52,528 nucleotides of DNA from a candidate division WS2 bacterium ADurb.Bin280 (GCA_002071685.1 MWBO01000006.1:1-52528), one strand, 5' to 3'. Positions 4,618 to 42,652 are shown, counted from the stretch's first letter. Translations and numbers: made by a program. The notes: generated from the sequence alone by a model not told the origin.

Positions 4618-4801
4618 AGCGATGATGCGGATACCACCGCGGAGCTGGCGAAAGAACCCCTGAATTATTTGAAGGGAAGTAAAGTCGCCCGAGAGCGCAA
4701 CGCGAAAGTTTGCGAGAAATGAGATCCCGCAAAGCGGGAAGCGAGGTGGAACCGTCGACCCTAGGCCGACCCTTGCAACAGCTTGAGCTGTTATTTTTTT
4801 T
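4618..4801 (+). promoter_or_regulatory. structured GC-rich 5' leader, T-box-like (candidate Thr-specific)
   Basis: GC-rich patch in AT-rich DNA. GCGAG|GUGGAAC|CGUCG..CGAC.CUUGC (4741-4776) folds as helix, 7-nt UGGN-containing bulge, helix, like a T-box antiterminator. The hairpin GCGG-AUACCA-CCGC (4627-4640) presents ACC followed by A. It ends in a terminator hairpin plus a T-run, and lies upstream of thrS. Confidence 0.4.
4777..4801 (+). terminator. intrinsic terminator/attenuator at the end of the leader
   Basis: AACAGC-ttga-GCTGTT followed by A plus eight T. Confidence 0.55.
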
Positions 4802-4821
4802 ACCCCGCTAGAGACAATTTT

Positions 4822-5082
4822 ATGTATTATACCTATATATTACAGAGTAAAAAAGATAGGCGGTGGTATACTGGTTGTACCAAAGATCTACGGAAGCGCT
4901 TTGATGAACACCAAAAGGGATTGAGTTATTCTACAAAAGGAAGGGGGCCATTTGAATGTATATATTACGAAGCATGCTTGGATCGAGGCGATGCTTCTGC
5001 AAGAGAAAAATATTTAAAATCGGGATATGGCAAGCGCTACTTGCGCAATCGTTTAAAGCGCTTCCTGTCTCTAACGGGGTGA
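4822..5082 (+). CDS. GIY-YIG nuclease superfamily small protein
   Basis: MYYTYILQS...RWYTGCT.DL..R...H motif (GIY...YIG-type N-terminus), 86 aa. I use the ATG at 4822 rather than the track start at 4783, which overlaps the terminator. Its stop lies 3 nt before thrS. Confidence 0.85.
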   Translation: MYYTYILQSKKDRRWYTGCTKDLRKRFDEHQKGLSYSTKGRGPFECIYYEACLDRGDASAREKYLKSGYGKRYLRNRLKRFLSLTG

Positions 5083-5085
5083 ATT

Positions 5086-6816
5086 ATGAGTAGTGATATT
5101 GAAACAATCAGGCACTCTCTGTCGCATATTATGGCGGCGGCGGTTTTGAAAATGTTTCCAGAGGCAAAGCTGGGGATTGGGCCGGCGATTGAAAACGGTT
5201 TCTATTATGACTTTGATCTCCCGAGGACCCTAATTCCCGAAGACTTGCCATTGATAGAACAGAAAATGCACGAAATTATAAATTCCGATGTGCCGTTTGA
5301 GAGAAGTGATTTGTCTGTCGATGAGGCGCTCGAAAGATTGAGCAATTCGGACGAGCCGTATAAATGCGAACTTGTCGAGGAATTGAAAAAAGAAGGGGAG
5401 AGCGAGGTCAGTTTGTACAAGACGGGTGATTTCGTGGATCTTTGCCGCGGTCCCCATGTAACATCAACGGCAGATTTGAAAAATGTGGCGTTTAAGCTCG
5501 ATAAAATTGCCGGTGCTTACTGGCGGGGGAATGAAAAAAATGCAATGCTCCAAAGAATTTACGCTCTTGCTTTTGAATCAAGTGAAGATCTTGACGCTTT
5601 TTTGAAACAGAGAGAGGAGGCGTTAAAAAGGGATCATAGAAAAATTGCCCAAGAGATGGATCTTTTTTCTTTTCACGAGGAGGGTTCGAACTTTGTTTTT
5701 TGGCATGACAAGGGCTGGAGTATTTTCCAGAAATTACTTGAATACTGGCGATCGATTCATAGAAGGGAGGGCTATAGTGAAATAAACACTCCGATTCTTA
5801 TGAACAAAGAAGTCTGGGAGAGGAGCGGTCATTTGAAAAATTATGGTGACAAGATTTATCTTGCCAAAACTCCGGAAAACGACGATTTCGATTATGCACT
5901 CAAGCCGATGAATTGTATCGGTGGAATAATAATATACAAAACGAAAATGCACTCATACAGGGACCTGCCCTTGAGAGTGGGCGAGATTGGTCTTGTTCAC
6001 CGTTATGAAAGTTCGGGAGAAGTACACGGGCTGATGCGTTTGAGGCAATTCAATCAAGATGACGCACATATTTATTGCACAAACGATCAAGTCAAAGATG
6101 AAATAATGGGAGTTTTCAAGCTCGCATTTGAAGTTTACAAAAAATTTGGTCTTGAGATAGATCATATCGAGCTTTCTACAAGGCCGGAAAAGTCGATCGG
6201 GAGCGACGAAGTCTGGGAGCGTGCTGAAGCGACGATGCGCGAGATACTTTTGGAAAACAATATCGATCACCAGATCAATGAGGGCGATGGTGCTTTTTAT
6301 GGGCCAAAATTTGATTTTCATTTACGCGATGCAATCGGTAGAACGTGGCAGTGTGGGACTATTCAGCTCGACTTTGCCCAACCGGAAAATTTTGATTTGA
6401 CGTATATAGACGAAAATGGCGAAAAGCAAAAACCGGTGATGATCCATAGGGTAATTTTTGGCGCTATAGAAAGATTCTTGGGCGTTTATATTGAAAATGT
6501 TGCCGGAGAGTTTCCGGCGTGGATTGCTCCGGTGCAAATCGAGATCATTCCGGTTTCCGATAAATTCAACGAAATTGCCAAAAAGGCAAAAGACAAGATT
6601 TGTGATTTGATCACAGATGCGCGAATAGAGATCGATCACAGGAACGAGTCGGTTTCAAGAAAAATCAGGGATGCCGAAATTGCTAAAGTTCCCTACAGCA
6701 TCGTCGTTGGGGAAAGAGAGAAGGGTCTCGAGCATTTTTCGGTCAGATTCAACAGAGAAAAAAACAAAACTCAAGTTGTGAGCCCAGACGAGCTCAAAGA
6801 CCTGTTGGAAAACTAA
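5086..6816 (+). CDS. thrS: threonyl-tRNA synthetase lacking the N-terminal TGS domain
   Basis: It starts directly in the editing domain (HSLSHIMAAAV..., GPAIENGFYYDFD). Class II core and anticodon-binding domain are present. 576 aa. Confidence 0.95.
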   Translation: MSSDIETIRHSLSHIMAAAVLKMFPEAKLGIGPAIENGFYYDFDLPRTLIPEDLPLIEQKMHEIINSDVPFERSDLSVDEALERLSNSDEPYKCELVEELKKEGESEVSLYKTGDFVDLCRGPHVTSTADLKNVAFKLDKIAGAYWRGNEKNAMLQRIYALAFESSEDLDAFLKQREEALKRDHRKIAQEMDLFSFHEEGSNFVFWHDKGWSIFQKLLEYWRSIHRREGYSEINTPILMNKEVWERSGHLKNYGDKIYLAKTPENDDFDYALKPMNCIGGIIIYKTKMHSYRDLPLRVGEIGLVHRYESSGEVHGLMRLRQFNQDDAHIYCTNDQVKDEIMGVFKLAFEVYKKFGLEIDHIELSTRPEKSIGSDEVWERAEATMREILLENNIDHQINEGDGAFYGPKFDFHLRDAIGRTWQCGTIQLDFAQPENFDLTYIDENGEKQKPVMIHRVIFGAIERFLGVYIENVAGEFPAWIAPVQIEIIPVSDKFNEIAKKAKDKICDLITDARIEIDHRNESVSRKIRDAEIAKVPYSIVVGEREKGLEHFSVRFNREKNKTQVVSPDELKDLLEN

Positions 6817-6856: not shown

Positions 6857-7894
6857 GGTGATTATATCGTTCAGTATTCTCCAGCGTCGTTGTTTTTCGC
6901 TCCATGGAATGGGGTCGCCGAGGCGATAGGCGGCGGTGCCATAGCGGGGAGAGTACTTGTTTATATATGCAGTTTTGTAACCGACGGATTTGAAAATTTC
7001 GACAGTTTTTTGAAAGTCGTCCTCATCCTCACCCGGGAATCCGACGATTACGTCTGTGGTGATGTCGATCGGCACTTTGCTAGTTCGTATTTTTTCAACG
7101 ATTTTTAAATAGGTTTTTGCATCGTATGGTCTGTTCATTGCTTTGAGTATTTTGTCACTTCCCGATTGGATAGGCAGGTGGATTTCTTTTTTGATCTTCG
7201 GTAATGTGGCAACGGCCTTGATTATTTCATCGGTCATGTCTTTTGGGTGATTTGAGGTAAAAGAAATAATAAAATCGCCATCAAGCGCGTTTAACTTTTC
7301 AAAAAGAATGTCGAGAGTTTCGCCGGTTTCGGGGTCTTTGTAGGAGTCTATCGTTTCGCCAAGAAGCAGTATTTCGCTATTGCCACGCTCAATTAATTTT
7401 TTGATATCCGATATCACGTCTTTGATATTTCGCGATCTCTCTCTTCCGCGCGTGAAAGCGGTGGCGCAGTATGTGCAAAAATTATTACAGCCAAACATTA
7501 TTGGTACAGATGAAGAAAATAATGCTCCTTCGCGAAGCAATTTCGATAAACTTTTCTGGTCTTTGAAGTCTATTAGTTTTGCCAGTTGTTCTGGCTTTTC
7601 AATATCCCAAAAATCAACTTGACGCGCCTTGAATTTCTTCTTATCATTGTCGATCACGCAACCCGTGACAATAATTTTGGGATTTTTATTTTTTTGCGCT
7701 TTGCGGATATTATTGACGAGTCCAAAAACACGATCGACAGCTGTCTGCCTGACCGCGCATGCGACTATGATAATCAGATCGGCTTTTTCTTTAGTCGTTT
7801 CTTGAAAACCTATTTTGTCGAGAAGATGATGAATGCGAACTCCGTCATGCTCGTTTTGCTGACAACCGATTACGTGAAGGTAGTATGTTTTCAT
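6848..7894 (-). CDS. radical-SAM methylthiotransferase, MiaB/RimO family, no TRAM domain
   Basis: N-terminal UPF0004 domain (YLHVIGCQQNEHD) and radical-SAM CNNFCTYC motif. It ends right after the radical-SAM core (348 aa). Confidence 0.8.
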   Translation of the reverse strand: MKTYYLHVIGCQQNEHDGVRIHHLLDKIGFQETTKEKADLIIIVACAVRQTAVDRVFGLVNNIRKAQKNKNPKIIVTGCVIDNDKKKFKARQVDFWDIEKPEQLAKLIDFKDQKSLSKLLREGALFSSSVPIMFGCNNFCTYCATAFTRGRERSRNIKDVISDIKKLIERGNSEILLLGETIDSYKDPETGETLDILFEKLNALDGDFIISFTSNHPKDMTDEIIKAVATLPKIKKEIHLPIQSGSDKILKAMNRPYDAKTYLKIVEKIRTSKVPIDITTDVIVGFPGEDEDDFQKTVEIFKSVGYKTAYINKYSPRYGTAAYRLGDPIPWSEKQRRWRILNDIITGK

Positions 7895-8709
7895 AGTGGG
7901 CTTTTGATATTTTTTATATTTGGATTTGTTACATGGGTATAGATTTGGGTGGTACGAATATTGGCGTGACCGAGAAGTTCCTGCACATAGCGAACATCAA
8001 CTCCGTTTTCTAGAAGGTGCGTGGCAAAGCTGTGTCGCAAACTATGGAATGTAGCACTCTTGGCAATTCCCGAATTGCTAAGTGCGCTTTCAAATATTTT
8101 TTCAAGCGAGCGGGTCGAAAGTTTCCCGCCTCTTTCGCTTTCAAATAATAGGTCACCTTTTTGTTTGTAGGCAATTGCCTTTTTTAATTCAACGATAATT
8201 TTTTCCGGTAGTAGCGAGATTCTATCTTTTTTACCCTTGGCATTTTTGATGTGTATTATTTTTTGATCAATGTCGATATCGCAAACTTTTAGATTTTGCG
8301 CTTCGCTAACTCGCAAACCAGCTCCATATGAAAGAGCAATGATGAGTCTGTGTTTTTGATTTTGTATCGAATCAATAATTCTTTTGATCTCTTGCCTTGA
8401 TAGTACAACAGGAAGTTTTTGAGATCTTTTGGCGAACTTGATATTGATTTTTTTATGATTTTTGAAAATTTCACGATACAGATACTTGATTGAGTTAATG
8501 TGCAGGTTGACTGTTTGTGAAGATTTACCGGAATCTTGCAGTTTGAGCAAATAATCTTTGATATTCTCTTCATCGATCCTATCTAAGTTTGATTTTTTGA
8601 AATCGAGGTATTTGCGAATGCAAAAAATATACGCTTCGATAGTCTTGGGGCTGTATGCACGAAGCCTCAATTCTCTTTTCGTTCTTTCTAAAATTTCTTG
8701 AATATTCAT
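7891..8709 (-). CDS. tyrosine recombinase, Xer/IntI-like
   Basis: KLPVVLSRQE, GAGLRVSE, AKGKKDR, HSLRHSFATHLL, LLGHANIRTTQIYTHV and a C-terminal KSPL. Start taken at MNIQEIL (8709). ATGA overlap with the miaB-like gene. Confidence 0.9.
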   Translation of the reverse strand: MNIQEILERTKRELRLRAYSPKTIEAYIFCIRKYLDFKKSNLDRIDEENIKDYLLKLQDSGKSSQTVNLHINSIKYLYREIFKNHKKINIKFAKRSQKLPVVLSRQEIKRIIDSIQNQKHRLIIALSYGAGLRVSEAQNLKVCDIDIDQKIIHIKNAKGKKDRISLLPEKIIVELKKAIAYKQKGDLLFESERGGKLSTRSLEKIFESALSNSGIAKSATFHSLRHSFATHLLENGVDVRYVQELLGHANIRTTQIYTHVTNPNIKNIKSPL

Positions 8710-8794
8710 ACTATTAAGAGTAGTGTATAAACAAGGAAATGATAGCACTTATTCTGCTAACAATCAAAATAATGCTATTAATATTCATCTTAAC

Positions 8795-8971
8795 CACATA
8801 AAAACGAGTTATCCAAAATCGCTTCGCGATTTTGGATAATGGGCGGCGGCTGACGCCTCGTTCTCCTCGTCGCAAAGCGACATCGGATAACTCGGTATAT
8901 CCTAAATTACTCAAAAATTATGATATAATTTTCTCGTAACTTCGGATATACCGCCGCCCATTATGTGAAAT
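8795..8971 (+). repeat. structured repeat, copy 1 (E1)
   Basis: 14-bp perfect hairpin at 8809-8822/8826-8839 with a TTC loop. 14-bp long-range stem ATAATGGGCGGCGG (8836-8849) / CCGCCGCCCATTAT (8951-8964). Hairpin GTCGC-aaa-GCGAC. CATCGGATAAC motif. Stem CGGTATATCC/GGATATACCG. Ends in ATTATGTGAAAT. Confidence 0.65.
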
Positions 8972-9107
8972 AAATTTTTTTATCATAGTGGTATTTTCGA
9001 ATTTTGTGCATTAAATCACGACGAAAATTTGATTTTTATTTTTTAAAGAGGGGGGTATAAGTTATTTTCTCCGCTTCGCTACGAAAATGGATTATTATAA
9101 AAAATTT

Positions 9108-9116
9108 TGCTATAAT
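9108..9116 (+). promoter_or_regulatory. extended -10 promoter element (TGcTATAAT) upstream of the R-M pair
   Basis: TGCTATAAT lies about 40 nt upstream of the ATG at 9155. There is no clear -35. Confidence 0.3.
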
Positions 9117-9154
9117 AGAATCATAACAAATCGCTAATTTTACTAAACTTTATT

Positions 9155-9754
9155 ATGAAAAACGAAATAAAAGAAATAGAAAAAGATTTAGAATTTGTAA
9201 AAAATATTTACATAAAACTTCTAACGATTCTACCTAGTTTTGATATTACTGATAGCAAAATTTTACCTTATGGGCTTAAAGCACATACCAGATCGGTAAG
9301 TTGGCTAGTTGAGCAGGTTATTACACAGCAAACCAAGTTTAATGCTAAAAAACTTGGCTTAGATGAAGTTAATTTTGATTTTCCAGATACCTCGCTACAT
9401 GATTGCGAAATTATTTATAAAGGCAAAAGCTATTTTATAAATGTAAAAATTCACAATATCGAAGGCAAAGAAAATAAAAATGATATTTCTGCGGTAGAAA
9501 AACTTTATTTTCAATACAGCGTTAATAAAAATTACACTTTAATATATGCTTGTTTTGGTATTAAATTTGAAAATATAAAAATAAGTTTTGTTAAAGATTA
9601 TTTAGAAGTTTTCTCACCACAATTTTTACCAATATATGTAAACCCAAGAAACGATAAAATACAAGCCACATATAGACACGATAAAGTATACAGAACACGA
9701 GATGAATTTTTAAAAATGTTAAAAGAAAAATCAAAAAGTATAATTTTAAAGTAG
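9155..9754 (+). CDS. putative type II restriction endonuclease (assigned by context)
   Basis: 199-aa ORF ending 2 nt before the methyltransferase start. Possible PD...(N/E)xK-like segment (FPD...INVK). Very AT-rich. No family recognised. Confidence 0.45.
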   Translation: MKNEIKEIEKDLEFVKNIYIKLLTILPSFDITDSKILPYGLKAHTRSVSWLVEQVITQQTKFNAKKLGLDEVNFDFPDTSLHDCEIIYKGKSYFINVKIHNIEGKENKNDISAVEKLYFQYSVNKNYTLIYACFGIKFENIKISFVKDYLEVFSPQFLPIYVNPRNDKIQATYRHDKVYRTRDEFLKMLKEKSKSIILK

Positions 9755-9756
9755 CT

Positions 9757-10590
9757 ATGAATAAAATTTTTAATGAAGATATTTTATTGGGAATTGATAA
9801 AATAGAAGATAATTCTATTGATTTGATATTGACCGATCCTCCTTATTGTTTAGGTAAGGATTATGGTAATGATTCAGATCAAAAATCAGCTGAAGATTAT
9901 CTAAATTGGACTTATCAATGGATTGATGCAGTTTTACCTAAACTAAAAAAGACCGGCAGTTTTTACATTTTTTTAAGTTGGCAATATTCTCCAGAAATTT
10001 TTGTATATTTAAAAAAGAAACTACGAATGGTTAATGAAATAATTTGGGACAGACGCGTGCCAAGCATGGGTGGCTCAACGAGAAAATTTTCTTCCGTTCA
10101 TGATAATATAGGTTTTTTTGTTAAAGATAATGATTACTATTTTGATCTAGACAGTATAAGAATTCCTTATGACGAGGAAACGAAAAAAGCAAGAACTAGA
10201 TCTATATTTGTTGGAAAAAAATGGTTAGAAATGGGCTACAATCCAAAAGATTTATGGAGCACGTCAAGAATACATGCTCAAGATCCTGAAAGAGAAAACC
10301 ACCCAACACAAAAACCATTAGAAATAATAGAAAGAATGGTAAAAGCAAGTTGTCCAAAAAATGGAATTGTTTTTGATCCATTTATGGGAACGGGAACAAC
10401 AGCTATTGCATGCTTGGCAAATGATAGACAGTATGTCGGTTTTGAAATAAACAAAGATTACCACAAGCTAATAACAAATCGAATCAAAAAATATAATAGT
10501 TGCCCTACTTTATTTCAACAGCAAGAACAAAAACAAGGTAATTTGGCTCGGGGCATTCACCCCCAACCCCTCTGCCCTTCGCCAAATTAA
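9757..10590 (+). CDS. DNA amino-methyltransferase, beta class (N6-A or N4-C)
   Basis: DPPY (motif IV) near the N-terminus and FDPFMGTGTT (motif I) near the C-terminus give the beta-class order. The last ~16 codons run into a GC-rich hairpin element. Confidence 0.9.
   Translation: MNKIFNEDILLGIDKIEDNSIDLILTDPPYCLGKDYGNDSDQKSAEDYLNWTYQWIDAVLPKLKKTGSFYIFLSWQYSPEIFVYLKKKLRMVNEIIWDRRVPSMGGSTRKFSSVHDNIGFFVKDNDYYFDLDSIRIPYDEETKKARTRSIFVGKKWLEMGYNPKDLWSTSRIHAQDPERENHPTQKPLEIIERMVKASCPKNGIVFDPFMGTGTTAIACLANDRQYVGFEINKDYHKLITNRIKKYNSCPTLFQQQEQKQGNLARGIHPQPLCPSPN
10539..10589 (+). repeat. GC-rich hairpin covering the methyltransferase stop codon
   Basis: TAATTTGGC (10539-10547) pairs with GCCAAATTA (10581-10589). 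The interior is G4/C4-rich. Confidence 0.5.
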
Positions 10591-10650
10591 AAATCAAATT
10601 TTCTTTAATAAAGACATAGTTAATTTATAAAAACCGAGATAAAAAAATTT

Positions 10651-10786
10651 ACATCACATAACAAGGCATATCTGGTTCAAGAATTTTTCATCAATAATAT
10701 TAATAAGGAGTAAAAAATTCTTTCACCCAAATTTGCCTTCATTTCATTTCGGCAAACTTCAGATATGCCTAAACGTTATATGAAAT
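10651..10786 (+). repeat. structured repeat, copy 2 (attC-like long imperfect palindrome)
   Basis: ACATCACATAAC, then AAGGCATATCTG (10663-10674), about 85 nt, then CAGATATGCCT (10760-10770), aaac, GTTATATGAAAT (10775-10786). It shares the CATC..ATAAC start and the TTATRTGAAAT end with copy 1. Confidence 0.6.
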
Positions 10787-10800
10787 TTTGAGTTCTTAAC

Positions 10801-10813
10801 GGGGTTCGCCTTT
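10801..10813 (+). repeat. left arm of a 13-bp perfect inverted repeat bracketing the ASCH gene
   Basis: GGGGTTCGCCTTT. The right arm AAAGGCGAACCCC is at 11272-11284. Confidence 0.7.
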
Positions 10814-10850
10814 CGATTATTTTATAAAGTTCAAAAAAATTAACTATCTT

Positions 10851-11287
10851 ATGGAACATCTTGCAATAATGAGAAAATCTTGGGGATTGACTCAAAAAAT
10901 TCTGTCTGGTCAAAAGAAAATTGAATCAAGATGGTATAAAGTCAAATATGTTCCTTGGGACAGAATCAAAACTGGCGAGATTGTTTACTTCAAAGATTCT
11001 GGCGAGCCAATTACCATCAAAACAGAAGTAGATAAAGTGATTCAATTTTCTGATTTAACTCCTGAAAAAGTTAAAGAAATTTTATTTCAATATGGTCAAT
11101 CCGATGGACTTGGTATTAATAAAATCCCAGAATTTTTTGAGATGTTCAAAGAAAAAAATATTGCATGTTAATTTTTTTGAAAAATCCACAGAAAATCCAA
11201 CCCTTTGAAATTGATAAATCAGGATTTGGTGCAATGTCTGCATGGATTTCTGTTGATAATATTAATAGGATAAAGGCGAACCCCTAA
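10851..11287 (+). pseudogene. ASCH (PUA-like) domain gene interrupted by a -1 frameshift in an A-run
   Basis: The 10851-11171 frame ends ...FKEKNIAC*. The -1 frame continues ...KKYCMLIFLKNPQKIQPFEIDKSGFGAMSAWISVDNI... to 11287, which reads like the normal family C-terminus. The junction is the A7 run at 11152-11158. Confidence 0.7.
11272..11284 (+). repeat. right arm of the 13-bp inverted repeat bracketing ASCH
   Basis: AAAGGCGAACCCC, the exact reverse complement of 10801-10813. Confidence 0.7.
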
Positions 11288-11620
11288 ACTCAAAACTCTG
11301 CGCTCCTTTCAGTCGCGCCCCGCTGCGCTCTCCTCCCTTCGGTCGTCGGGGCGTATAACACAGCGTATGCGGTTCGGGGCTCGGCTCGCCCCTCACCCAT
11401 ATTTTTGCTCCCGTTGGTCGCAAAAACATCGCATACGCTGGAACGTTATGCAAAATCGCTTCGCGATTTTTCATAATGAGGCGGCGGTTCCCGCCAGTTC
11501 TACTCGTCGCTCCGCGACATCGCATAACTGTCAGCTATATGCCATTCTCATAAATTATGGAATAATTTATTCGAACTGACACATAGTTGCCGCAGGTTAG
11601 TTTTTGTAAATATCGCATAA
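11288..11620. other. GC-rich, highly foldable non-coding block (contains repeat copy 3)
   Basis: Stems CGCCCC/GGGGCG and GCGTATGCG (11363-11371) / CGCATACGC (11430-11438). ATCGCATA motifs recur at about 90-nt spacing (11429, 11519, 11613). The ORFs here are Arg/Pro-rich and overlap on both strands, so they are judged spurious. Confidence 0.5.
11445..11545 (+). repeat. structured repeat, copy 3 (E2), direct repeat of 8808-8905
   Basis: Aligns with copy 1 over about 95 nt: same AAAATCGCTTCGCGATTTT hairpin, ATAATG.GGCGGCGG, GTCGC-nnn-GCGACATCG.ATAAC. The 3' pairing partner seen in copy 1 is missing. Confidence 0.65.
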
Positions 11621-11650
11621 AACAAAAACGCCCCGAGAGGGGCGCTTTTG
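11620..11650 (-). terminator. rplY terminator (bidirectional hairpin)
   Basis: CGCCCC-gaga-GGGGCG (11629-11644) with T-runs on both strands. Confidence 0.7.
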
Positions 11651-11666
11651 TATATTTTTGTTTTTT

Positions 11667-12362
11667 TTATTTGTCCTCTTTGTCATCGCCGCCTTCTGAT
11701 TCTGATTCTTCGCCTTCTTTTGGCTCTTCACCAGCTGCTTGTTCGACGGCTTCCTTTTCTTGTTCGGCGGTGGACTCTTCAAGCTCTGCAAGCTCTTCTT
11801 CGCTTCTTGGCTCTTCAACGAGGGCTATCACTTCTTCGGGCTCTGTCAGAACCTTGATTCCTTCGGGAATGTTTAAATCGGCAACGGTAATTTGATCTTC
11901 GAAGCTTGCGAGCTTGGAGATATCTACTTGAATTTCACTGACAAGAGCGGAAGGAAGACATTCGACTTCGATATTATCTCTATTTGTCACCAAGCTTCCG
12001 TCAAGATCTTTGACAGCTGAAGATTCACCGGTAAACTCGAGAGGGATCTCTGTTCTTATCTCTTCATCCATTTTCACTTTATAAAAATCAATGTGAACTA
12101 CATTTCCGGTAACAGGATGCTCTTGAATGTCGTTGATAATAACTTTAAATGACTTGTCATCGCCGATTTTCAAATCTATCAGTGAAGATGTGCCGGCTTC
12201 GCTAAATACTTTTCGAAATTCTTTGGCATCAGCACTGATATTGATGGGTTTTTCGCCCTTGCCATAGACAACAGAAGGTACCAAGCCCGAATTTCTTAGA
12301 TTCTTGACTTGTTTTTTGATAATTTCTCTACTTTGAGCTTTTAGCGAAAATGATTGAACCAT
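11667..12362 (-). CDS. rplY: 50S ribosomal protein L25/Ctc with acidic C-terminal tail
   Basis: Typical L25/Ctc N-terminus (..R...GK...K.LR..G..P.V.YG) and a two-domain length. The tail is rich in E/D/K. Confidence 0.9.
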   Translation of the reverse strand: MVQSFSLKAQSREIIKKQVKNLRNSGLVPSVVYGKGEKPINISADAKEFRKVFSEAGTSSLIDLKIGDDKSFKVIINDIQEHPVTGNVVHIDFYKVKMDEEIRTEIPLEFTGESSAVKDLDGSLVTNRDNIEVECLPSALVSEIQVDISKLASFEDQITVADLNIPEGIKVLTEPEEVIALVEEPRSEEELAELEESTAEQEKEAVEQAAGEEPKEGEESESEGGDDKEDK

Positions 12363-41748: not shown

Positions 41749-41796
41749 GGGTCGGGGTTCGTGGTTCAAGCCCACGTGCTCTGACCCTTTTTTTTT
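41749..41796 (+). terminator. compound hairpin plus T9
   Basis: GGGTC...GACCC enclosing CGTGG-ttcaagc-CCACG, then nine T. Confidence 0.6.
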
Positions 41797-42652
41797 AAAA
41801 AAGTTTACCCGAGGAGAACTTATCGCTTTTGGTGGGGGTTTGAGAAGTGTTGTCGCTTGAGGTAATTTGATCTGCAATCATCACGCTTTGCTCTTGTCTT
41901 TTTCCTTCAAAATTTTCTGCTACTTTTCTGTATTTGCAATAATCGCAATCTTCGCTTGCCTCTGGAATTGTGTCGCTGTCGAGGCATTGTTTGGCTTTGT
42001 TGATTGTGGGCTCTATCCAATCGCATTTTCCTTTGTGCTCGATCAGCTTAATCTTGAAATCAAGCTTACCATCAAATGCCTCCTTGTCTTTGTCGCCGTT
42101 ACAATAAACAAAGTACCCGCTTTCTAAAACATCAAATCCATTCTTGCGAAAAAGCCACTGATAAATCTCCATCTGGCGCTTATAGCCGTCTTGCCAAGGA
42201 GCGTCAAGAGTGACTTCGCCTTCTTTTGCAGTGGATTTGTAATCGACTACTATTAATTGATTTTTGTCATTGATCCAAATGTCGTCTATTGCGCCACTAA
42301 TGATTAAATTAGCTTTTTCGTAAAAATACTTGATCCCTTCAAAATTTTCGCGCCATGTATTGAGATCTTTGTGAGCGAACGGGATGGCATTTATTTTATA
42401 GGACTCCATCAGAGGGTGGGACTCGCCATTTGCTCTGTGAATATCGAACTCTTTTTTCAAAAGGTGATCTACTGCCGAATTAAGTGAAAAGGGGAAACCG
42501 GGCGGCCTGCCGATTCCAAGCCGCTTGTCCAGATAAAAGCATCGCGGGCATTCCACGAAGAGGTCTATTCCGGATCTCGAGAGCCTAAAAGGCTCTTTGG
42601 ATTTTGGGTCATAGAGATACTTCTTCAACCTTGGAGGGTTGTAAAATGCCAT
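41795..42652 (-). CDS. PD-(D/E)XK nuclease with a Cas4/AddB-like four-Cys arrangement
   Basis: CPRCFY near the N-terminus, GAIDDIW...VVDYKS core, and CDYCKY near the C-terminus. Confidence 0.7.
   Translation of the reverse strand: MAFYNPPRLKKYLYDPKSKEPFRLSRSGIDLFVECPRCFYLDKRLGIGRPPGFPFSLNSAVDHLLKKEFDIHRANGESHPLMESYKINAIPFAHKDLNTWRENFEGIKYFYEKANLIISGAIDDIWINDKNQLIVVDYKSTAKEGEVTLDAPWQDGYKRQMEIYQWLFRKNGFDVLESGYFVYCNGDKDKEAFDGKLDFKIKLIEHKGKCDWIEPTINKAKQCLDSDTIPEASEDCDYCKYRKVAENFEGKRQEQSVMIADQITSSDNTSQTPTKSDKFSSGKLF

Follow-up and report, generated by a model that had tools for sequence, protein, structure and literature searches.

What does a recombinase gene do beside a row of short gene modules, each ending in DNA that appears able to fold on itself? 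The question is raised by a locus in a 52,528-nt stretch of DNA (the window) from the candidate division WS2 bacterium ADurb.Bin280 (GCA_002071685.1 MWBO01000006.1:1-52528), where a gene for an Xer/IntI-like tyrosine recombinase is transcribed away from such modules. An earlier note on this DNA had proposed folded recombination sites bounding mobile cassettes, in a layout like that of an integron or an IMEX (integrative mobile element exploiting Xer). We consider it likely that the locus is an integron-like gene-cassette platform run by an Xer-grade tyrosine recombinase. What can be observed directly is a family of sites with a covarying structure, their position and orientation, a permutation signature in the cassettes, and variable content beside a conserved flank. 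The earlier proposal is supported by the distribution of the sites, the variable content, the compensatory changes in the fold and the form of the cassette ends; the folding itself we infer.

The window was compared with 91 loci that encode relatives of the recombinase (11 genomic and 80 metagenomic, cited below by L numbers), and the DNA upstream of each recombinase gene was read. The closest loci bear Saccharibacteria-like names, that is, names from the candidate phyla radiation (CPR). The features of the window on which the argument depends are as follows (ORF, open reading frame; CM, the covariance model of the cassette site described below).

7891-8709, minus strand: Xer/IntI-like tyrosine recombinase, 272 aa; Pfam PF00589 (Phage_integrase), 4.5e-44, with an N-terminal SAM-like domain
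8792-8819, plus strand: primary recombination site (dif/attI-like), 28 bp, AACCACATAA-AAACGAG-TTATCCAAAAT
8809-8960, plus strand: cassette 1, ORF-less, 152 nt; hairpin at 8809-8839 with stem GGGCGGCGG/CCGCCGCCC; simple end site
8961-10775, plus strand: cassette 2, putative restriction gene and DNA methyltransferase gene; three-way-junction end site at 10648-10788, CM score 103.4 bits
9155-9754, plus strand: putative restriction (R) ORF, 199 aa, 446 nt from the recombinase gene
9757-10590, plus strand: type II N6/N4 DNA methyltransferase; Pfam 2.3e-57; PADLOC MTase_II 455 bits
10776-11445, plus strand: cassette 3, ASCH-domain gene; three-way-junction end site at 11345-11458, CM score 95.6 bits
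10851-11171, plus strand: ASCH ORF; Pfam 2e-4, just above cutoff
11446-11596, plus strand: cassette 4, a second, diverged ORF-less copy; degenerate site at 11518-11608, tail TTAGTTTTTGT

What kind of enzyme is encoded here? The earlier note's minus-strand tyrosine recombinase is borne out by its Pfam domains. Its catalytic residues are R133, K155/K158, H222, R225, H248 and Y257, and eight orthologues all retain the catalytic R, K, H-x-x-R, H and Y. The protein passes the NCBIfam XerA model NF040815 (225.5 bits against a cutoff of 220), which places it in the Xer family; the XerD and XerC models give 189 and 185 bits, each under its own cutoff. The integron integrase model TIGR02249 fails, with 228.7 bits against a cutoff of 265 and a match in two stretches. 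Among solved structures in the PDB, the best match is nonetheless Vibrio cholerae IntI4 (2a3v, 175 bits), ahead of XerA (148 and 146 bits) and XerD (93 bits). This alignment comes in two blocks, with query residues 11-184 matching IntI residues 10-186 and query residues 199-272 matching IntI residues 244-317. IntI residues 187-243 are skipped, and only 14 query residues lie there, so that ~43 residues of the IntI-specific insert are missing. The C-terminus ends in SPL. Thus the earlier note was right to describe an IntI-type recombinase with an SPL end and without the IntI-specific insert. Smyshlyaev et al. 2021 (PMC8138268) place candidate-phyla enzymes of such type in an Xer-related 'Cand' subgroup, to which no cassettes were assigned. 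A second tyrosine recombinase was not found in the window, and an exact-protein look-up returned one further contig only, with the same arrangement. On its other side, the recombinase ORF overlaps the start of a downstream miaB-like radical-SAM gene, and thrS is next.

The key to the locus proved to be a 28-bp site that the earlier note had not singled out. This primary site is two-armed and lies 83-110 nt from the recombinase start codon, upstream of the divergent gene, where attI lies in an integron. Equivalent sites occur at 29 loci from Saccharibacteria, Berkelbacteria, Veblenbacteria and other Patescibacteria, 70-140 nt upstream of the orthologous gene (259 nt in L039). Their consensus, ttc..ATAaaaAc.AGTTAt..gaAAT, has the 28-bp length, the two inverted arms of ~11 bp and the 6-8-bp centre of a dif site. 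Crossover in the primary site would fall at G8808|T8809, where the cassette array begins. L002, the closest relative, has a recombinase 84% identical to that of the window, and its intergenic match with the window ends exactly at GAGTTA; the sequences beyond are unrelated. The primary site may double as the chromosome's dif. The earlier note had asked whether the enzyme would group with Xer proteins while a dif site existed elsewhere. The first part holds, since the enzyme is Xer-type and a dif-like site exists; the second does not, as the site is at the head of the array. A dif-like site in that position fits the IMEX half of the integron/IMEX reading and does not refute it.

In the interval separating the primary site from the recombinase start codon, at 8745-8775, there is a second conserved motif resembling the L arm, A[CT]TTCG[TC]ATAA.AT.CAA.AT, which is degenerate in the window. 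It resembles an arm of loxP and also occurs, at the equivalent position, in L007, L009, L014, L017, L018, L020, L022, L023, L025 and L026. An operator or a binding site for an accessory protein are possible roles.

The cassette-site family and its distribution

What bounds the modules? Upstream of the recombinase gene in many loci, and often in several copies, there is a recurrent motif consisting of CATCnnAYAAC, a spacer and ATATnnGG. Each copy is followed 70-200 nt downstream by a partner half, AAC(T/A)TCnnATAT-spacer-RAWC-GTTAKnnGAAAT. An alignment of 26 such sites gives a consensus that begins with an AAC/GTT R box, in which AAC is invariant and GTT nearly so, and continues through a 1x4 asymmetric loop into a 10-bp helix made of a 4-bp spacer and the L box (ATATnn/nnATAT). 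At the top of the site is a three-way junction closed by GGY/RCC, with two variable hairpins and with conserved unpaired CCCA(A/T)AT and C(T/A)TC. The site thus forms an imperfect palindrome in the order R''-L''...L'-R', with two conserved mismatches (ACATC opposite GAAAT) in addition to the asymmetric internal loop. Arm spacing is unequal: 8 nt in the 3' half of the site, 5 nt in the 5' half and 6 nt in the primary site.

Structure in these sites is kept over sequence. Across the 26 sites and 25 pairs, 96.5% of cells pair and compensatory changes are found at 16 of the pairs. In the 10-bp main helix all cells pair (100%), a single position shows as many as four pair types, and G-T is absent. 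Covariation scores 0.600, compared with 0.132 for shuffles and 0.06-0.11 for slid controls. Stem complementarity was among the grounds on which these sites were chosen, but selection of this kind did not extend to helices other than the main one. G-T/G-U pairs account for only 2-3 of 632 cells, none of them in the main helix, a scarcity of wobble pairs that speaks for DNA and not RNA. A search of Rfam at gathering and at permissive thresholds returned a tRNA-Gln elsewhere and nothing credible in 8650-11700.

A covariance model built from the 26 sites was searched against the window and the 91 loci, 645 kb on both strands. In the window, matches are confined to this locus: 10648-10788 (103 bits), 11345-11458 (96 bits) and 8877-8973 (41 bits). 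The search of relatives for further copies that the earlier note had called for yielded 49 more matches at E<1e-4 in the 91 loci, 46 of which lie upstream of, and divergent from, the recombinase gene. That compartment makes up 20.8% of the search space (binomial P = 3.7e-28 for 46/49). Loci whose recombinase is less than ~43% identical to the query have no matches. The repeats therefore do not show the genome-wide dispersal of repetitive extragenic palindromic (REP) elements or miniature inverted-repeat transposable elements (MITEs), and the earlier note's concern that they might recur at many unrelated loci did not materialize.

The DNA between the sites is variable, while the flank is conserved. 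In L002, L003 and L013 the recombinase gene is followed by the miaB-like gene and thrS, which in L025 and L064 are located close by; L009 shows only the miaB-like gene, since its contig stops short of thrS. No cassette gene of the window was found in the arrays of these six loci. Hence the earlier expectation of variable module content in relatives is confirmed: the recombinase-miaB-thrS side is shared, the modules are entirely different, and the break is at GAGTTA. An all-vs-all blastn comparison of the arrays found that they have in common only the sites and one leader of ~140 nt. This leader accompanies radical-SAM enzymes in the first cassette of L004, the first of L026 and the second of L018, and two radical-SAM ORFs behind it are only 23% identical. 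In L004, the radical-SAM enzyme is preceded by a small cysteine-rich peptide ORF, and the cassette may be of the kind that makes ribosomally synthesized and post-translationally modified peptides.

Cassettes range from 152 to 3190 nt and mostly have one ORF each; 56 of 67 ORFs (>=50 aa) are co-oriented with the array. Pfam families in the cargo include a 2-hydroxyacid dehydrogenase, a glyoxalase, NUDIX (two), a HEPN protein, a DNA methylase, an isochorismatase, an Ltp-type lipoprotein, radical-SAM enzymes, methyltransferases, an HNH nuclease, VanW, Fic (two), an aminotransferase, HAD, DUF711, a trypsin-like protease, SET, cytidine deaminases (four) and MazG. Many cassette ORFs belong to no Pfam family. 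This mixed accessory cargo is of the kind known from chromosomal integrons. No transposase was found in or beside the arrays examined. The cassettes themselves contain no recombinase and resemble IMEXs in this lack and in their dif-like flanks.

Sites of this family are also present in phage-like DNA. A degenerate site pattern occurs in 13 IMG/VR contigs, several of which, according to the model, do have arrays of 2-6 sites, as follows.

L100, 116-2310: site array
L102, 1271-2947: site array
L103, 3492-5619: site array
L104, 223-1426: site array
L093, 112-603: site array

Some of the IMG/VR arrays adjoin genes for RecT, PD-(D/E)XK nucleases, a helix-turn-helix protein or a phage-type integrase. 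Cassettes in the phage-like arrays are short, at 290-1036 nt, and their sites include a junction-less form of 68 nt. An independent set of 21 sites from viral contigs also pairs and covaries well above its control.

Proposed cassette movement and competing explanations

How would such units come to lie one after another? A telling clue is the match between cassette ends. For each cassette, the 20 nt ending in AAC were scored against the tail that follows the preceding G|TT, against the cassette's own adjacent tail and against random tails. Over 46 cassettes, the preceding tail matches at 13.0/20, compared with 8.85/20 for the own tail and 8.62/20 for random tails. The preceding tail is better in 37 cassettes, equal in three and worse in six (Wilcoxon P = 5e-7), and many cassettes reach 17-18/20. 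In the window, the values for preceding and own tail are 16 and 10 for cassette 1, where the preceding tail is that of the primary site, then 17 and 11, and 9 and 8; for the fourth cassette, scored by eye, they are 7/8 and 4. The same signature is found in the phage-like arrays. Since pairing links each 5' box to the beginning of the cassette that it belongs to, the co-oriented cassettes have the form of permuted circles cut at G|TT. Together with the covarying spacer, the signature indicates a crossover confined to RAWC|GTTA.

These observations suggest a mechanism. The recombinase gene is transcribed away from the 28-bp primary site, and cassettes would be inserted at that site one after another, each of them a former circle that usually carries one ORF and one recombination site. 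A single strand folding on itself would bring the two halves of the site together to rebuild a dif-like duplex, and strand exchange within RAWC|GTTA would join the cassette to the primary site. Exchange at that position would split the R box, so that a cassette begins with the outer half of its box and ends with the remainder. The window would then hold a stack of four cassettes: an ORF-less element, a restriction-modification (R-M) pair, an ASCH gene that is now frameshifted and another ORF-less element. Insertion and excision are probably catalysed by the adjacent recombinase. Folded single-stranded DNA is the presumed substrate, by analogy with integron attC and the attP of CTX phage, because only folding restores the dif-like register from half spacers of 5 and 8 nt, against 6 nt in the primary site. 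Exchange of one strand would presumably be resolved by replication. An insert-less enzyme acting on a hairpin has a precedent in XerCD, which likewise lacks the IntI insert and recombines the attP of CTX phage in its folded, single-stranded form.

Several points weigh against an integron-like platform. First, cassette recombination is read here from sequence. Second, the IntI insert that contacts extrahelical attC bases is absent from the enzyme. Third, the pairing is not wholly independent of how sites were collected. Part of the main-helix pairing in the 26 training sites is there by construction, since stem complementarity was one ground for choosing them; the 21 sites from viral contigs (93.1% paired, covariation 0.475 vs 0.127) were not selected by stem complementarity, but their alignment was fitted to the model. 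Fourth, the three exceptional matches to the model are all in L046, where the sites (1513-1616, 5491-5593 and 9511-9605) are on the same strand as the recombinase gene (6001-6804) and on both sides of it. Fifth, the site of cassette 4 has no match to the model at E<=1, so its 3' boundary is the least certain of those in the window. Sixth, the blastn comparison of the arrays found no identical cassette in two genomes, and the retrieved stretches of the phage-like contigs contain no xer-like gene. Last, the 3' half of a site makes up a whole dif-like duplex on its own, albeit with an 8-nt spacer, and a double-stranded pathway is possible. As a separate observation on L046, its recombinase is longer, N-terminally extended and apparently within a cassette-like interval.

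The rival explanation that survives best, unlikely as we judge it to be, builds on that last point. It is plain IMEX stacking at a chromosomal dif, in which the cell's single Xer enzyme would insert double-stranded circles by two-strand recombination with the 3' half of the site, while the hairpin and three-way junction would serve termination, circle replication or an accessory protein. The enzyme's pass as an XerA equivalog, its position as the only tyrosine recombinase in 52.5 kb and the conserved housekeeping synteny of miaB-thrS are all in keeping with this view. So are the dif architecture of the primary site, the regeneration of a full primary site by each insertion, and the presence in the 3' half of every cassette site of both an L arm (AACTTCnnATAT) and an R arm (GTTAKnnGAAAT). 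Yet neither half has the 6-nt spacer of the primary site, and the dif-like register appears only on folding. Furthermore, the spacer and L box covary perfectly without conservation of sequence, which would be needless for a purely double-stranded site. Nor does GC skew support a location at the terminus: there is no clear switch in the window, and core-side skew is of either sign in 12 loci, although the stretches are short and the test is a weak one.

There is far less to be said for two other explanations, each of which we regard as very improbable. One is that the hairpins are RNA elements, such as 3' untranslated region structures, terminators or small RNAs, that follow accessory genes and have no role in DNA recombination. 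Indeed, the sites do follow co-oriented ORFs, a three-way junction with conserved unpaired nucleotides is a feature of many structured RNAs, and the first hairpin of cassette 1 is terminator-like on the minus strand. However, Rfam has no match and there are hardly any G-U pairs; the sites occur only on the side next to the recombinase, and their arms copy the arms of the local primary site. No RNA role would explain why the 5' box pairs with a cassette start 0.2-3 kb upstream. The other, that the sites are autonomous MITE/REP-like palindromic repeats or transposon-like terminal inverted repeats moved by an enzyme encoded elsewhere, could draw on the inverted repeats of 12-80 nt at cassette ends, the phage-like arrays without a nearby xer-like gene and the site families common to distant genomes with different ORFs, but it is at odds with the lack of other copies in the 52.5-kb window, the lack of a transposase in or beside the arrays examined, the uniform orientation of the sites and the way they abut a two-armed recombinase-type site with which they share arms.

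Relation to known systems

How does the proposed cassette platform compare with systems already described? The closest likeness is to integrons. In both, the recombinase gene is divergent from a two-armed primary site that is followed by an array of co-oriented, mostly single-ORF cassettes with miscellaneous accessory cargo. In both, the cassette site is an imperfect palindrome of the form R''-L''...L'-R' with AAC/GTT, in which pairing is conserved over sequence and the stem has asymmetric unpaired features; crossover would be at G|TT, with the R' tail lying in the next unit. The enzyme itself is nearest to IntI4 among solved structures. There are also differences. IntI has an I2 helix insert that reads extrahelical bases, whereas the enzyme here has no such insert, and for this reason the system is not strictly an integron. 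Sites here have a three-way junction with unpaired CCCA(A/T)AT and C(T/A)TC, in contrast to the free, variable terminal structure of attC, and the arms copied in their boxes are of the dif type (TTCGnATAA / TTATnCGAAAT). The host belongs to the CPR, arrays are also found on phage-like contigs, and a Pc promoter was not identified at this locus.

IMEXs and the CTX attP of V. cholerae, which use XerCD and dif, are similar in that elements without a recombinase of their own stack in tandem at a dif-like site that adjoins the gene of an Xer-type enzyme or is served by one. In CTX attP(+), two inverted dif-like sequences fold into one dif-like duplex with a mismatched centre. The cassette site here likewise consists, in double-stranded form, of two inverted dif-like sequences that can fold into one dif-like duplex. 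The definition of IMEX stacking fits the system if the primary site is dif. It differs in that single-gene cassettes of 0.15-3 kb take the place of phage or island genomes, a structured site family is used serially, and there is one recombinase rather than XerC plus XerD.

Two further groups share parts of the arrangement. Archaeal XerA/dif, XerS/difSL and XerH/difH each have a single recombinase and a site beside its gene, an arrangement matched here by the short enzyme and the 28-bp two-armed site conserved across a large clade, but they have been described as dimer-resolution modules, without adjacent arrays of folded-site cassettes. The pdif modules of Acinetobacter are small gene modules (including toxin-antitoxin and resistance genes) that lie between Xer-type sites and encode no recombinase. 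They lie on plasmids between plain 28-bp sites of alternating orientation, however, and lack hairpin or junction sites, polarity and an adjacent recombinase gene.

A search of the literature on integrons, attC, Xer and IMEXs in CPR, Patescibacteria and Saccharibacteria did not find a description of such a system; its coverage was incomplete, and a prior description is possible. The IntegronFinder 2.0 paper does not mention CPR. Since standard integron detection requires the IntI insert, arrays of this kind are likely to be invisible to current surveys.

What would the functional implications be? We raise tentatively, as something a little short of probable, the broader idea that an insert-less, Xer-grade recombinase runs a full integron-type cassette economy across much of the CPR, with folded three-way-junction sites made of dif arms, cassettes shared with CPR phages and a primary site that is maybe dif. 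If so, there are several consequences. First, one enzyme may both resolve chromosome dimers and capture genes. Second, the system would be a living example of the transition from Xer to integron, or else an independent invention. Integrons are thought to depend on the I2 insert of IntI, which lets an Xer-like enzyme read folded attC hairpins. The transition has so far been studied by engineering IntI (PMC4792948, PMC7790495); a natural and widespread combination of attC-like folded sites, an insert-less enzyme and boxes made of dif arms would make the origin of integrons testable with real partners. Third, there would be a defined route to accessory genes in the CPR, whose members combine very small genomes with a scarcity of known mobile-element systems. 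Fourth, that route of gene acquisition would be linked to their phages.

The individual cassettes of the window

How far do the window's own elements match what had been claimed for them? The earlier note had described three related, GC-rich structured elements before, between and after the gene modules. All three are structured, in that their folds beat those of shuffled sequences. As DNA, copy 1 (cassette 1) folds at -44.5 kcal/mol (z = -9.3). Copy 2, the site of cassette 2, folds at -19 kcal/mol in the array (z = -4.2), in agreement with the imperfect palindrome in the order ATAAC...GTTAT that had been seen there. GC richness does not extend to copy 2, which is 28% GC; the region is an island of 21-37% GC between 8.9 and 11.3 kb, against a background of ~42%. 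Relatedness is likewise partial. Copies 1 and 3 (8808-8971 and 11445-11600) are 76% identical direct repeats and are two copies of one ORF-less cassette, and copy 2 is another kind of element. Copy 3 had been mistaken for the counterpart of copy 2 after the ASCH gene, and the true counterpart, the site of cassette 3 at 11345-11458, had been missed. The finer motifs are where the earlier note put them: copies 1 and 2 end in ATTATGTGAAAT (8960-8971) and GTTATATGAAAT (10775-10786), and of CATC-NN-ATAAC there are exactly three occurrences in the 52.5 kb, each of them within this region, compared with 0.38 expected and no shuffle that reached three.

The ORF-less cassettes occupy the first and last positions of the array. 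In each, the R' tail forms a perfect hairpin with its complement; there are also a GC stem and a simple site, and the loop has a conserved motif resembling an extended -10 element. The end site of cassette 1 (8877-8973) matches the model at 40.9 bits (E = 1e-7). Cassette 4 is the last unit before a terminator and the L25 (rplY) gene, and its R'' sequence, GCATAAC, pairs by eye with the preceding tail, GTTATGC. The idea that these are promoter cassettes, based on TTATGATATAAT / TTATGGAATAAT conserved in the loops, is unsupported: a promoter and terminator scan did not rise above chance, with 8 promoters found in the region and 13.3 expected. It was the same scan that picked out the terminator-like hairpin of cassette 1. 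When the ORF-less cassette motif CTCGTCGCNNNGCGACA was searched in all loci, only the window's own duplicate contig matched. A similar element is seen by eye upstream of the recombinase gene in L030, with covarying arms GTTGT/ACAAC and a 4-nt loop.

Cassette 2 had been read as an R-M pair, to be followed by an ASCH gene. The methyltransferase and the distance of the pair from the recombinase gene stand. The R gene, 2 nt from the methyltransferase gene, is unverified; its protein has a weak, sub-cutoff NCBIfam match to a UpaP162-type restriction enzyme (8.4e-5) and nothing in Pfam, the PDB or PADLOC, so that the pair is a plausible reading with an unverified R half. The GC content of the cassette is 29%. 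Its ends are inverted repeats of ~80 nt (8961-9042 vs 10584-10661, with matches of 22/24 and 19/20), and the junction of the circularized cassette would fold at -46.3 kcal/mol (top strand) or -51.8 kcal/mol (bottom strand), compared with the far weaker fold in the array. An inversion of the shufflon or inverton type around the R-M pair was considered in view of these repeats and rejected, because the sites in all arrays are directly oriented and the ORFs co-oriented. Upstream of the R gene, at 9023-9100, there is a leader (TTGATTTTTATTTT..AAAGGGG.ATAAG) followed by a hairpin, GTTTTC-TCCGCTTCGCT-GAAAAC. Part of this region is repeated in inverted form at 10584-10603, Rfam has no match to it, and leaders of the same type occur soon after the primary site in L005, L023, L029, L033, L036 and L064. 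The element may act as a promoter or a leader, or encode a tiny ORF.

The ASCH gene of cassette 3 is present as claimed, but it is frameshifted in an A-run at 11151-11157, and the other frame continues to ~11286. The frameshift could reflect a pseudogene, a slippage site or an assembly error. The site of this cassette has a conserved 5' extension from ~11303 and is 74-81% identical to sites in L023, L003 and L040.

Two other ORFs of the window lie outside the array. A GIY-YIG domain ORF of 99 aa (4783-5082), possibly homing-endonuclease-like or with a URI domain, is directly upstream of thrS, and an ORF of 285 aa for a Cas4/PD-(D/E)XK-like nuclease (41795-42652) is distant from the array.

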